From assembly GCA_965219445.1 (NCBI GenBank), contig CBDCNQ010000002.1, positions 640,001 through 704,000 of the forward strand: 64,000 nucleotides of DNA, given 5' to 3'. The translations under genes and the position numbers were made by a program. The notes below the pieces were generated by a model. That model saw nothing but the letters and a program-made list of their open reading frames with translations, had not been told where the DNA came from and ran no database searches. Source of the DNA: Longimicrobiales bacterium. Its GTDB lineage: Bacteria; Gemmatimonadota; Gemmatimonadetes; Longimicrobiales; Gaopeijiaceae. Positions 52,413 to 57,018 of the stretch are shown piece by piece. How positions within the stretch are numbered: position 1 is the first letter of the stretch; every line of letters begins with the position of its first letter.

Positions 52413-53549
52413 ATGTCACGCTTCGGTCTCATGAGGTACGGGTTATGCAGCGGCGTTGCGGCGCTGCTTTGGATGGCTGGGCCGTTGTCAGCGCAGGCTG
52501 GCGGTGGCGAGGTATCGAGGGAGCGACAGGCAGAGCTTCAGAAGGCTTCGGAGTTGTCGCGGCGCCCGACGAGCACAATGCCCAGTCCGTACCGATTGGT
52601 GGAAAACTGGCCTACGCTACCGCCGGGAATGGAGTGGGGAGCTGCGATCGGCATCATACCAGATGATACGGGAGGCACATGGATGCTCTTCCGGTCGGAG
52701 ATTCCGATCCTGTACATCAACTCGAACGGGCAGGTCACGAAGAGCTTTGGCGAGGGGATGATCGTGCAGGCGCACGGGTTCTGCATGGACAGAGACGGGA
52801 ACCTGTGGGCCGGGGATAGTGGTCCCTTCAGGGACGACCCCTCCTCGAGGGGGCGCGGCTTCCAGATCCACAAATTCAGTCAAGATGGCGAGTTGCTGAT
52901 GAGCCTGGGTCGGGCGGGGTTCTCGAGGGCGGATAGAGCGAACACGTTCATCGGCCCAACGGCCTGCACGGTAGCGCCGGATGGGAACATCATCATAGCG
53001 GACGGACATTGGCCGCGACCCTCGACGGCACAACAGGACGGAGATCGTATTGTAGTGGTCACGCCGGAGGGAGCGTTCATCCGAGAGACGGGTCGTCTCG
53101 GCGCCGGTCCGGGTGAGTTCATGGGACCGCATTCGTTGGCGCTCGATGCGGACGGTCGCATCTTCGTGGCTGATCGATCGAACAATCGGATTCAGATTTT
53201 GGACCGGAACTTGAACTTCGTGGACGATTGGCGGCACTTCGGGCGGCCGAGCGGAGTCACGGTGCTGAGCGACGGTACTTTGGTCGTCTCCGACTCGGAA
53301 TCCGGCGCCACGATACCTGGGCCGGACACCGCGCTGGACGGGCTGGCGGGAGTTCGCAACCCAGGCTTTCAAGTCGGGATTCGGGTCGGAAGGGTAGACG
53401 GCTCACTGCGATACTTCATCCCTGGCACCCGGCCGGAGGGAATGGCGGCGGACAACCTGGGCAACATCTTTGCCGGCCTGACAGGCGGATGCGATGTGAG
53501 CCCCTCGGGCGGTTGCCTGCAGAAATGGGTACCCGTGGGACCCCGCTAA
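52413..53549 (+). CDS. Secreted NHL-repeat PAL-like protein (variant active site)
   Basis: QAHGF, ADGHW, GPHSL, ADRSNNRIQ, RPEG. Confidence 0.83.
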   Translation: MSRFGLMRYGLCSGVAALLWMAGPLSAQAGGGEVSRERQAELQKASELSRRPTSTMPSPYRLVENWPTLPPGMEWGAAIGIIPDDTGGTWMLFRSEIPILYINSNGQVTKSFGEGMIVQAHGFCMDRDGNLWAGDSGPFRDDPSSRGRGFQIHKFSQDGELLMSLGRAGFSRADRANTFIGPTACTVAPDGNIIIADGHWPRPSTAQQDGDRIVVVTPEGAFIRETGRLGAGPGEFMGPHSLALDADGRIFVADRSNNRIQILDRNLNFVDDWRHFGRPSGVTVLSDGTLVVSDSESGATIPGPDTALDGLAGVRNPGFQVGIRVGRVDGSLRYFIPGTRPEGMAADNLGNIFAGLTGGCDVSPSGGCLQKWVPVGPR

Positions 53550-54653
53550 TTCGCGGGTCGAGGGAAAACCGACATCTTTCCGAGGTCGTTCGAGGGCGTC
53601 AGCGCGCGAAAGTCGCCTGGTTAAGGCGGGCGATGGGGTCGGGCATACTAGTTCCCCATCCGCTGGCGAAGCTCCTCGAAGAAGTTGGTGACCACAAAGA
53701 ACCGTTCCTCTGACACCTCGCTCTCCAGGTCTGCGACTTGGCTGAGCATCTGTGGAACCACCAGGCGGTCCCCATCAGGATGGAGGTCTGAGGCGGGTCG
53801 GAAGTAGCCCGCCGTGAACAAGGAGTCCCTGGATAGCACCACCGGCACGGGATCTCGTTGGATGCGGGCGGCAAAGAAGGTGTCGTCGACTCTCCCAGCC
53901 TCCCTTGCGGTCCAGTAGTAGATGGTGTTGCCGTCTGGTGACCATCGGGGGAACTCACCTCCGCCCTCCGACACCAGTGTCCGTTCACCGGCTTCAGGAA
54001 AACTCCGAATGTAGATCTCCGGTGTACCCGTCTCGTCAGACCCATAAGCGGCCAGGGTCCCATCCGGTGAAACCACGATTTCGTGAAGGTTGGCCTCCTG
54101 CTCCAGGTAAGCCTCCGCCCTCGGGCTGTCCGGGTCCGAGAGATCGAGCATCCACAGATCGGTTGGCGGCGGCCCCCACTCGAACACGATCAGCGTGTCG
54201 CTCGGCCACTGCGTGGGGAGTTGAGCGCCGGGAAGTGTGATGAGGAGTTCCGCAGGCGTGTCGTTGTCCAACCTCTTCACGAACAGATCGGATCCGTCGG
54301 TTCCTTCCCGCTGGGAAGAAAACACGACACGGGTCCCATCCGATGAAGTCACAGGTCCGACATTGCTCCCTTGGAAAGTAAGCTGTCTCGGCGTCGCCCC
54401 CAGTTCTACGTCGAAGGCGAAAATGTGAGGGTCTGCTTCGCCGTCCGGGCGACTCTCATAGACCACCGACCGACCATCAGGAGACCACATCACGTCACGG
54501 AGGCTTCGTGGAGCTAGGACCAGAGGCTCTATATTACCCTCCAGATCCACGACGAGGAGCCGTTGTCCGCTACCCGTACCAGTGGTAGCAAGAGCGCCTG
54601 CTCCATACACCAGAGTCCCGTTCTGCGAGACCGCGAACCGGGCGTCGAAACCG

Positions 54654-55251
54654 TCCATAGACGAAACCGTCCATAGACGTCCATAGACGTCCATAGACGA
54701 CCGGGGGCAAGCCGAGGCTTGGCAGAATATCGAAGATGGGTCAGCGCGATCTCAGGCGGCTCCTGATCACGGGCGCCATGACGATTGTCCACCACGCGAT
54801 CCGACGCGGCGAGACGACGGATCCGTGGCTAGCCAGGATGTTGGCACGCAAGCCCAGGATGCTGGTCGCGGTAGCGCTGGCGAACAGGATGGCGCGCATT
54901 GTCTGGGCGCTTACGACGAAGAAGGAGATCTATCGGGCTCACGCTGCCGCCGCCTGACCGGGCGAAAGGAGGGAAGCCGAGAGGAGGACAGCTGTTGGGG
55001 ATGTGAGCAGGTCGGAGGACAGGTAAGGGCAAACGGTCAATGAGACGGGGTCGAGAAAACCAGCAACCGAACGGAGAGCACCGAAGCTCGCGTAACCGAT
55101 ATGGACTCGGCCCGCGTATCTCCATACAGGCCAGCGGCCAACTGAGTTGCCGCACCAACAGGCCGGATAGACGACAGCACCTGACCACATGCACCGAACC
55201 GTTCGAAGAAAAGCTTGCATCAAAGGGGGCGTCCATAGACGTCCATAGACG
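54654..55251 (+). mobile_element. Truncated IS110-family (IS1111-type) element: transposase 3' fragment plus long right-end non-coding region
   Basis: 54700-54957 encodes TGGKPRLGRISKMGQRDLRRLL..GA...VAVALANRMARIVWA; right end GGGGGCGTCCAT-AGACG; CG core present at both flanks. Confidence 0.88.
55027..55180 (+). ncRNA. Putative IS1111 bridge/seekRNA (limits approximate)
   Basis: Two stem-loops whose internal loops carry ACCGAACG and CGTAACCG (match target halves) and TCCATACA and ATAGACG (donor end). Confidence 0.7.
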
Positions 55252-57018
55252 TTCGGTATCGAAACTCCGTCGAATAGAGTGACGGGATCTCCGACGACTT
55301 CGCCCCGACGAGCGTCGAACGCTACGGCCCACAGGGTCCCTGAAACGTCGGCGTACAGCAGGTGCCCTGTCTCTATGTATGCGGCGTCGAGGGCGCCTGC
55401 CCGAACTACTCGCACCGAGTCCGTATCCAAGTCGAGGATCAGAGTTGAGAGAGCTACGGGGTCCGTGAAGATGACGGCCCCACCTCCGGGGAGAAGCCTC
55501 GGGTTACGAACTGATGTCGTAGGGTCTAGGAGAGGCTGGGGATCGCCCCCTGTTTCAGGAACGCGGTAGAGGCCCCGACCTCCGGCTCCGGTATGTGTGA
55601 AGACGACGGTTCCGTCGTCCCCCCAATGGAGACCAGCCACACGAGCCGCCGGGATGTCGGTCACGGTCTGCGGGGCACCTCCTGAGAGCGCCACTCTTTG
55701 AATGGACCCCTCGCCGGCGACGCCGAAGACCAATGACTCTCCGTCCGGTGAAAAAGAGGCGAAGGCGGTGCCTTCGGTTCCCGGTATAGGCCGAAAGCCT
55801 TCCTCATCGGCATTGCGCCAGTAGAGCGGCCCTCCACTGACCAGAGCGAACCGCAGGCCATCTGGGGATACCAGAATATCGCCAGAAGGGGTAAGCGAGA
55901 GGTCTCCGAGGTCAACCGACGCGAGCGTAACCGGAATTGCGGCGCGGGTCTGTTCCAGCCCCAGAGGGCGAGGGCCACGAAGAGGGCAGTGGTCGTCGCA
56001 AAGGCGACCGTCAGTCGATTCCAGGGGCCAGCCACCGTAGCAGGTCCTTGCGCGGCTACTGCCTCCGAGGTCGAGGCCGTTACGGATGTCCGAGCCCGAG
56101 CCTTGTACGTGAACCTCTCGTCCGCGAGCGCCGCAGCGAACTCAGCCGCGCTCGTGAAGCGGTCGGCGGGTAGCTTCTCCAGCGCCTGAGCGAGTGCATG
56201 GCCGACATGGGGTGGCACGGTCCTGCGCTCACTCGTGATCGACGGTGCATCCATCGTGAGGATCTTGACCAGCACGGCTTGGGCGGTTGTCGCCGAGAAG
56301 GGTGGCTGCCCGGAGAGCATCTCGTACAGCACACAGCCGAGCGCGTAGACATCAGACCGTGGGTCCACGTCCCTGTCGCCTGTGGCCTGCTCGGGACTCA
56401 TGTAGTGCGGTGTGCCCAGGCTGAGTCCGGTCTCTGTGATGCGCCCAGCACCCGCCTGAGCCACGGCCAACGCAATACCGAAGTCTGCTACGAGCGGCTC
56501 GCCCTGAGCACTCAGGAGGATGTTGCCCGGCTTGATGTCGCGGTGGACGACGCCGTTCTGGTGTGCGTAGTCGAGTGCGCCCGCCACCTTCTGCGTGATC
56601 GCCAGTGCGTCCTCCACACCGAGTTGCTTCTCGCGGTCGATCCGCTCCCTGAGTGATTCACCTTCGATGTGGGGCATCACGTAGAAGAGGAAGCCATCCG
56701 CTTCGCCCGAATCGAACAGTGGAAGGATATGCGGGTGAGTCAGGTTCGCGGTCGTCTTGATCTCGGCCAGGAACCGCTCGGCCCCTACCACCGCGGCCAA
56801 CTCGGGCTTCAGCACCTTGAGGGCTACGTTTCGGTTGTGTTTCAGATCCTTGGCGAGGAAGACCGTCGCCATCCCGCCTTCGCCGAGTTCACGCTCAATG
56901 GCGTAGCGGCCTTCGAGGGCTGCGTTGAGACGGGCGACGGGATCAGTCATGGCGGACAAGATGCGTCTAAGGGGTGTGGCGCGGCAAGGATCCTATCCTC
57001 ACCGATCTACTGAGGTGG

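Follow-up and report, generated by a model that had tools for sequence, protein, structure and literature searches.

A remnant of an IS1111-group insertion sequence with a predicted bridge/seekRNA region and repeated right ends in a Longimicrobiales genome

The window analysed here is a 64,000-nucleotide stretch of a Longimicrobiales genome (G000:C2:640001-704000, G000 being this genome). Positions given without a prefix are window positions, and all features lie on the plus strand except the host gene. This gene (53648..56959, minus strand) encodes a Ser/Thr kinase fused to a PD40 beta-propeller, as assigned with Pfam, and its frame can be rejoined across an insertion of 598 bp. Deletion of 54654-55251 restores CGAAAC-CG-TTCGGT, the target proposed in a preliminary description of this DNA. 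The same deletion mends the reading frame of the host gene, giving 496 codons and one terminal stop. The left target half, CGAAAC, and the CG core occupy 54646..54653 and the right half, TTCGGT, 55252..55257. Both are host gene sequence and match the left and right guides described below at 5/6 and 6/6 positions, respectively. The host gene carries a separate frameshift near 55900 (window 55880-55960), between its kinase and propeller parts. Because the contig of sequencing run X1 has the identical sequence at the frameshift, the gene is probably a pseudogene.

The empty allele exists in nature. A contig of run X2 joins 54651 to 55250, skipping 598 bases, and a contig of run X6 passes from 54654 into TCGGTATCGAAAC, that is from the left flank to the right one. 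Both runs come from a single sample (S2, study P2) and so amount to one observation; run X1 belongs to another study. Among the matches listed for the eight sequencing runs searched, none is a full-length allele of this site. Runs X8 and X9 yielded only short unrelated pieces there and run X10 no match. In genomes of the same genus, the left flank is matched at 83% identity or less.

The inserted 598 bp do not make up a clean element. Copies of a right-end unit come first, a transposase fragment follows from 54700, and a doubled right end (55232-55251) closes the stretch. The fragment (54700..54957) is the 3' part of an IS110-family recombinase gene, scores above the Pfam cut-off for Transposase_20 and lacks the DEDD domain. 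It begins directly after an internal CG inside the GLVPRQHTTG motif and keeps the last 86 codons only. The window copy is a dead remnant, devoid of the left end and of the catalytic (DEDD) domain. What follows the fragment is very probably the 3' non-coding bridge/seekRNA region of an IS1111-group insertion sequence, with loops that match the two target halves and the element's own ends. It is another example of a known RNA-guided mechanism, not a new kind of system.

Two full recombinase genes (C2:226183 and C2:609694) are 100% identical to the window fragment. The full protein (C2:226183) has 341 amino acids and scores 324.6 bits against NCBIfam NF033542 (cut-off 140). It holds D10, E53, D90, D93 and GLVPRQHTTG, and combines the DEDD RuvC-like domain with the Transposase_20 domain and S/T-G motif that define IS110-family recombinases. 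The holders of the nearest proteins are Longimicrobiales and Alphaproteobacteria MAGs. The true left end, seen in the copies at C2:226071 and C2:609582, is CG-ATGGAGTGGACGCCCCCT, behind the flank GGTGTAAC. The left end at C2:226071 and the right end in the window share a subterminal inverted repeat, TGGACGCCCCCT, with all 12 bp matching; in the window, AGGGGGCGTCCA is followed by TAGA and the CG core (55224..55241). Subterminal inverted repeats of 11-13 bp are a trait of the IS1111 group that this element shares. The extensions past the perfect repeat measure 8 and 4 bp, or 7 and 3 bp when the repeat is extended outwards over one mismatched position; those of the group are 7 bp on the left and 3 bp on the right. 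The distance from the stop codon (54957) to the core (55241) is 284 bp, which fits the long downstream non-coding region and the 330-350 amino acid protein of IS1111 elements.

Both full genes have lost the right end: other repeated DNA interrupts one copy, and behind the other gene the non-coding region is inverted. In the latter copy (G000:C2:610746-610963), a 218-bp RNA region has been turned around, the right end is lost, and one inversion breakpoint adjoins a reverse-strand CG. No copy with both ends of the window's element was found in this assembly (91.8% complete). None of its copies here has the make-up of an active autonomous insertion sequence, in which a complete recombinase gene lies between the two ends of a single unit. 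A sibling at G000:C5:441630-443141 (348 amino acids, 68% DNA identity) has both ends and is apparently complete. Its guides differ from those of the window and match its own flanks, the left at 5/6 and the right at 5/6 plus a G-U pair. In three genomes, remnants (L210, L211 and L224) are cut at one transposase base (AAGA|TGGGCC), each after unrelated sequence; this spot is likely targeted by another site-specific element.

The segments named in the preliminary description all lie where it had placed them: ACCGAACG (reverse complement CGTTCGGT) at 55066-55073, CGTAACCG at 55091-55098, TCCATACA at 55121-55128 and ATAGACG at 55167-55173. The first is the right-target guide, ACCGAA-CG (55066..55073), complementary to CG-TTCGGT, and the second the left-target guide, CGTAAC-CG (55091..55098). 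ATAGA-CG (55167..55173), the left-donor guide, is identical to the right end of the element, as had been noticed. The right-donor guide had been read two bases out of place. It had been taken to predict a left end containing TGTATGGA, which occurs in 0 of the 82 relatives with both ends and does not agree with the real left end, CG-ATGGAGTGGACGCCCCCT. The correct guide is CTCCAT (55120..55125), the complement of ATGGAG in the true left ends at C2:226071 and C2:609582.

In 20000 dinucleotide shuffles of the non-coding region, all three matches occurred together twice. Taken singly, the exact right guide was found in 271 shuffles, the left guide with at most one mismatch in 4733 and the donor guide in 380. 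The left-guide match taken alone is therefore weak (24% of shuffles). Across the genome, 3 of 1,030,120 CG-centred sites fit the guides as well as the window site (11/12). A search of 53500-56500 against Rfam, with E up to 1, returned no match.

Stronger evidence comes from relatives. In all, 160 loci were fetched and 4 others added (164 in total); 94 of them could be parsed, giving 96 rows, and 70 could not. Three nested or tandem rows, the two from L084 and one from L005, were dropped, leaving 93 rows, 82 of them with both ends. Covariation was assessed with one element per guide type (27 distinct left guides). Guide and left flank agree at 5.07 of 6 positions on average, against 1.83 after shuffling (no more than 2.81 in 10000 shuffles). 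For the right flank, where the best of four registers was taken in real and shuffled data alike, the values are 5.41 of 6 against 2.84 (maximum 3.70). The three core-proximal bases match in 26, 27 and 27 of the 27 guide types. In 20/82 elements the two guides and the two junctions all carry TG as the core, the screen pattern having included the core. These data bear out an IS1111-type guide RNA with a CG core, in which the right-target guide precedes the left-target guide. It must be noted that the relatives are kin, so that the shuffle tests overstate significance; the statistics are inflated, while the direction of covariation is not in doubt.

The proposed preferred target, CGTAAC-CG-TTCGGT, is realised in the relative L022, which has the same two guides and the flanks CGTAAC and TTCGGT, 6/6 each. 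Other copies in this genome show left flanks of TGTAAC (twice) and TGCAAC and a right flank of TTCGTT. In a same-guide family with 12 copies in one alphaproteobacterial genome, 6/12 match the right guide at no more than 3 of 6 positions. Right-arm specificity in that family is loose, and weaker than the preliminary description implied.

The donor loop of the earlier reading is supported as well. The last four bases of the left-donor guide equal the right end in 90/93 rows, among which are five sequence types. CCAT of the right-donor guide is invariant and is paired with ATGG in 82/82 elements, the parser having required both. Because this guide is nearly invariant, covariation is not possible and it can only be said to match. 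The junction cores differ from each other in L022, L027, L041, L075, L091 and L160 (e.g. CG on the left and CA or TG on the right), and in the first five of these the right core follows the right-target guide. Such differing cores may fix the position of the crossover within the core.

The target-binding loop domain of the predicted bridge/seekRNA spans 55048..55113. Its outer stem (55048-55055 with 55106-55113) has 6/8 pairs changed on both sides, and in the inner GAGC/GCTC hairpin between the target guides (55076..55089) two pairs show 7 and 11 compensatory changes. In a consensus fold derived from an alignment of 34 non-coding regions, 97.6% of cells are paired, with slid controls at 21-43%, and 8/26 pairs show two-sided change. 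All two-sided changes fall in the target domain and none in the donor-side helices; conserved structure is thus strong for the target domain and weak for the donor domain. The consensus leaves each of the four guides unpaired, not buried in stems, as the earlier reading demanded. The GGGTCGAG/CTCGGCCC stem and GAGC/GCTC hairpin that it had drawn do form in the single-sequence fold, yet that fold (z -0.94) is no better than those of shuffles, with unpaired probabilities of 0.39-0.80 for the guides. Support for the stem and hairpin therefore comes from the alignment.

The RNA gene of the remnant is intact and lies antisense within the broken host gene, with no promoter-like site; no sigma-70-like promoter was found in 54600-55400. 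TTGCAT (55215..55220) is the predicted -35 box of a circle-junction promoter; a GACGAT box, extending over the right end, core and left end of a joined circle, would follow after a 17-bp spacer. The putative promoter is modelled on the IS1111-family junction promoters described in the accessible text of PMC11187229. The remnant cannot rebuild this junction promoter. Nor would its RNA be needed in trans, because an identical RNA region lies behind the full gene at C2:226071. The right junction of the remnant could still be usable as a substrate.

Both junctions of the insert carry scars, which the preliminary description had missed. The left scar (54654..54699) comprises four copies of a 10-bp right-end unit, TCCATAGA-CG, every unit being preceded by CG, and includes a 16-bp duplication that takes in host AAAC-CG. 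The right scar (55242..55251) is one extra TCCATAGA-CG, and is covered with 0 differences by an X1 contig (55213-56344). Contigs of runs X1, X4 and X7 (short-read, three samples S1/S3/S4 of one study) carry the left scar with 0 differences; they extend to 54726, 27 letters past the join at 54699 and below the 31-letter rule. At a second scar locus (C3:77694-79470), three 68-bp tails stand between TGCAAC-CG and CG-TTCGTT, a 9/12 fit to the guides compared with 11/12 at the window. Each tail covers the stretch from the left-donor guide's CG up to the right end, and one is split by another multi-copy element. At both loci, each repeat is the right end joined to the sequence after an upstream CG.

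Repeats start behind a CG or TG core in 4/4 distinct cases in this genome and in 5/5 in other records, the fraction of CG being 0.107; these loci were chosen because repeats were seen there. In relatives with the element body in place, the repeated units measure 15 bp (L038, L108), 30 bp (L203), 144 bp (L084) and 378 bp (L218, TG core). A survey of right ends in 29 element-bearing genomes (147 right-end matches) revealed short doubled ends at two loci of the window element's family and one of another element. Two doublings among 147 matches suggest an event that is uncommon but recurrent. Around right-end matches, mostly lacking a left end at the usual distance, 20 regions were inspected, 6 of which are unlike the element. 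The locus L208 (G343:C1:2810599) is an orphan tail laid out like the window, with one 10-bp right-end unit ahead of a 76-bp tail. It was rejected as a replicate, its host junction being ambiguous by one base and its flanks matching no guide. A 34-bp flank repeat at L059 was not counted as a scar, since the target itself may be repeated there. Read depth over the element, which sums other organisms, was rejected as a measure of copy number. In G343 there are also 31-bp duplications of the left end, starting from an internal CG, which mirror the right-end scars (C1:383495-383541 and 1925915-1925961).

The right-end repeats at both junctions are likely the record of misfired recombination steps. 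By analogy with the family, the element would circularise, the circle junction would form the promoter (TTGCAT, 17 bp, GACGAT), and the RNA would bind the DEDD recombinase. The target loop would read CGTAAC-CG-TTCGGT and the donor loop ATAGA-CG-ATGG. The four loop segments likely guide the recombinase to join ends and target at the CG core, where strand exchange would occur as in the accessible account of PMC11208158. The scars fit the left-donor half-match duplication of the 2026 preprints, in smaller units. One of these, in its available part, describes tandem units that keep the left-donor match only and proposes their resolution in place (bioRxiv 10.64898/2026.08.14.744561); the other, likewise seen in part, holds half-matches sufficient for IS621 (10.64898/2026.08.31.748434). 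In-place left-donor-only reactions would explain the duplications.

Duplication alone does not account for the orphan loci, where the left target meets the duplicated tail exactly at its core. The simplest further step is a precise cut-out of a full-length unit, for which we put the case at about an even balance. This led to the following history for the window. A full copy would have inserted at the site; right-end-only reactions would then have joined upstream CGs, duplicating stretches of 545, 10 and 16 bp in place; a full-length unit would finally have been cut out precisely between two cores, joining the left target to the duplicated tail. The three 68-bp tails of the C3 locus would arise by the same route. 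Duplication followed by precise cut-out is the best reading available, with as much to be said for it as against it. In L038, L084, L108 and L203, three of which retain a left end, an element body is immediately followed by the duplicated tail; this arrangement is the intermediate predicted by the duplication and cut-out model. For the window site itself, no intermediate allele that would favour one history over the other appeared among the matches listed for the eight runs. Flank rejoining has precedent: IS621 is described in PMC13626964, as far as accessible, to excise precisely with flank rejoining at a low rate. For IS621, rejoining of the flanks is also reported as about 34-fold rarer than that of the donor. 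In the accessible accounts of ISEc11, an IS1111 member (PMC11187229), and of CazIS110-1, flank rejoining went undetected. If true, cut-out with flank rejoining would be a step that has escaped laboratory detection for ISEc11.

An alternative keeps the same RNA but assumes another history, in which partial circles without a left end inserted into empty targets and nothing was cut out. The circles would consist of the 545-bp tail with its 10-bp repeats and of the 68-bp tail, and would enter through a full target match and a left-donor half-match. Partial circles with one donor match are described as common in the available part of bioRxiv 10.64898/2026.08.14.744561, half-match substrates recombine in vitro according to that of 10.64898/2026.08.31.748434, and ISPpu9 sub-element circles are reported to move the RNA module alone (PMC12288879, accessible text). 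Both scar loci also lie in good targets (11 and 9 of 12). However, the first preprint, within the same limits, states that partial circles mostly keep the left-end (RD) terminus and that LD-started reactions resolve in place, and the tails behind element bodies at L038, L084, L108 and L203 speak against entry as circles. We consider this history a strong competitor, though less likely than not.

It could also be argued that the target loop works alone, as a short seekRNA, and that the protein recognises the ends through the inverted repeats, the donor matches being passengers. An 82-nt target-only RNA is reported as sufficient for ISEc11 movement (PMC11187229, accessible text) and such an RNA as the main species for CazIS110-1 in what is accessible on it, and with a nearly invariant right-donor guide no covariation is visible. 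This proposal is nevertheless unlikely, since the left-donor guide tracks the right end in those 90/93 rows and five sequence types and shares the CG-to-TG switch, and since every scar ends at the sequence that it spells. Still less probable is an origin of the repeats in replication slippage or illegitimate recombination without the recombinase. Slippage can add units once two 10-bp units exist, and the orphan ends L207, L212, L216 and L219 do not begin at a core. Against this, the boundaries of the first copies have only the 2-bp core in common, 9/9 repeat starts lie behind a core dinucleotide, and the right end of the element is the exact terminus of all repeats. Chance matches or an assembly artefact at the repeat boundary, to which the left-guide frequency in shuffles and the fact that run X1 may be the assembly's source lend some colour, are barely credible and largely refuted by guide-flank covariation, the scar in samples S1, S3 and S4 and the clean empty site of another study.

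Some relatives sit inside the IS1111 bridge-RNA gene of a sibling (L085:3049-3300, L086, L005:1160-1444, L205 and L206, the last two being places in G343). The donor-loop region of that gene is what their target guides, CGAGGC-CG and TATGTC/TATGTG-CG, spell out. Such a relative would act as a parasite, disrupting the guide RNA of its sibling. L215, in G351, combines these guides with a hybrid right part. No paper describing an element aimed at a sibling's bridge-RNA gene was found, in a search that covered subscription papers thinly. The composite picture is that the scar loci record an exact-rejoining cut-out together with right-end misfires onto CGs as near as 10 bp, whose micro-repeats mark and break target genes for good, and that the clade also has a sibling-targeting element. 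As a whole it is tentative, and we think it somewhat more apt to fail in one part than to hold throughout.

The scars matter more than the RNA itself, whose 27 natural guide variants can be read off a common scaffold. The scars are relevant to the unsettled debate on whether excision proceeds by cut-out or copy-out. Right-end duplications of 10-30 bp are a by-product for which users of bridge recombinases should watch, and one that escapes a survey limited to units of at least 50 bp. We found no paper on right-end scars of 10-30 bp in IS1111 elements, with subscription papers and preprint supplements thinly covered; the supplements may hold short-unit cases, which bears on novelty.

Among known systems, the element resembles ISEc11, ISKpn4, ISPst6 and ISPa11 in the features given in the accessible text of PMC11187229. 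These are a 3' non-coding region, subterminal inverted repeats, a 330-350 amino acid DEDD protein with GL-P----TG, a top-strand (right-target) guide ahead of the bottom-strand (left-target) guide, and natural reprogramming in relatives. It differs from this group in its guides and target and in its hosts, Longimicrobiales and some Alphaproteobacteria MAGs; in addition, the copy in the window is reduced to a remnant, bears scars at its ends and may record flank rejoining. Like the bridge RNAs of IS621 and IS1111 elements, as far as the available portions of PMC11208160, PMC11208158 and PMC13626964 describe them, its RNA has four guides around a 2-bp core. Its donor guides are likewise predicted in a multi-loop, as noted there for IS1111 orthologues, and PMC11208160 places the IS1111 bridge RNAs 3' of the gene, the location found here. 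Unlike IS621, in its accessible description, the element has a CG core (TG in some relatives) instead of CT, its RNA lies in the right end, and its right-donor guide does not spell the core (CCAT-AC).

The repeats share with the LD-only tandem repeats of the two preprints (10.64898/2026.08.14.744561 and 10.64898/2026.08.31.748434, in part) units running from an unmatched core to the left-donor sequence, as well as partial modules beside or without a recombinase gene. The survey in the former, as its available part states, took units of at least 50 bp and lineages with at least 95% of the transposase, whereas the units here measure 10, 15, 16 and 30 bp and two loci are without a parent element. 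Finally, the remnant recalls the ISPpu9/ssr9 modules (PMC12288879, accessible part), which are RNA-bearing sub-modules of an IS110-family element without the transposase gene. ISPpu9, however, is described there as having dedicated boxes and an Ssr9 that is dispensable for transposition, whereas the boundaries of the repeats described here are ad hoc CGs.
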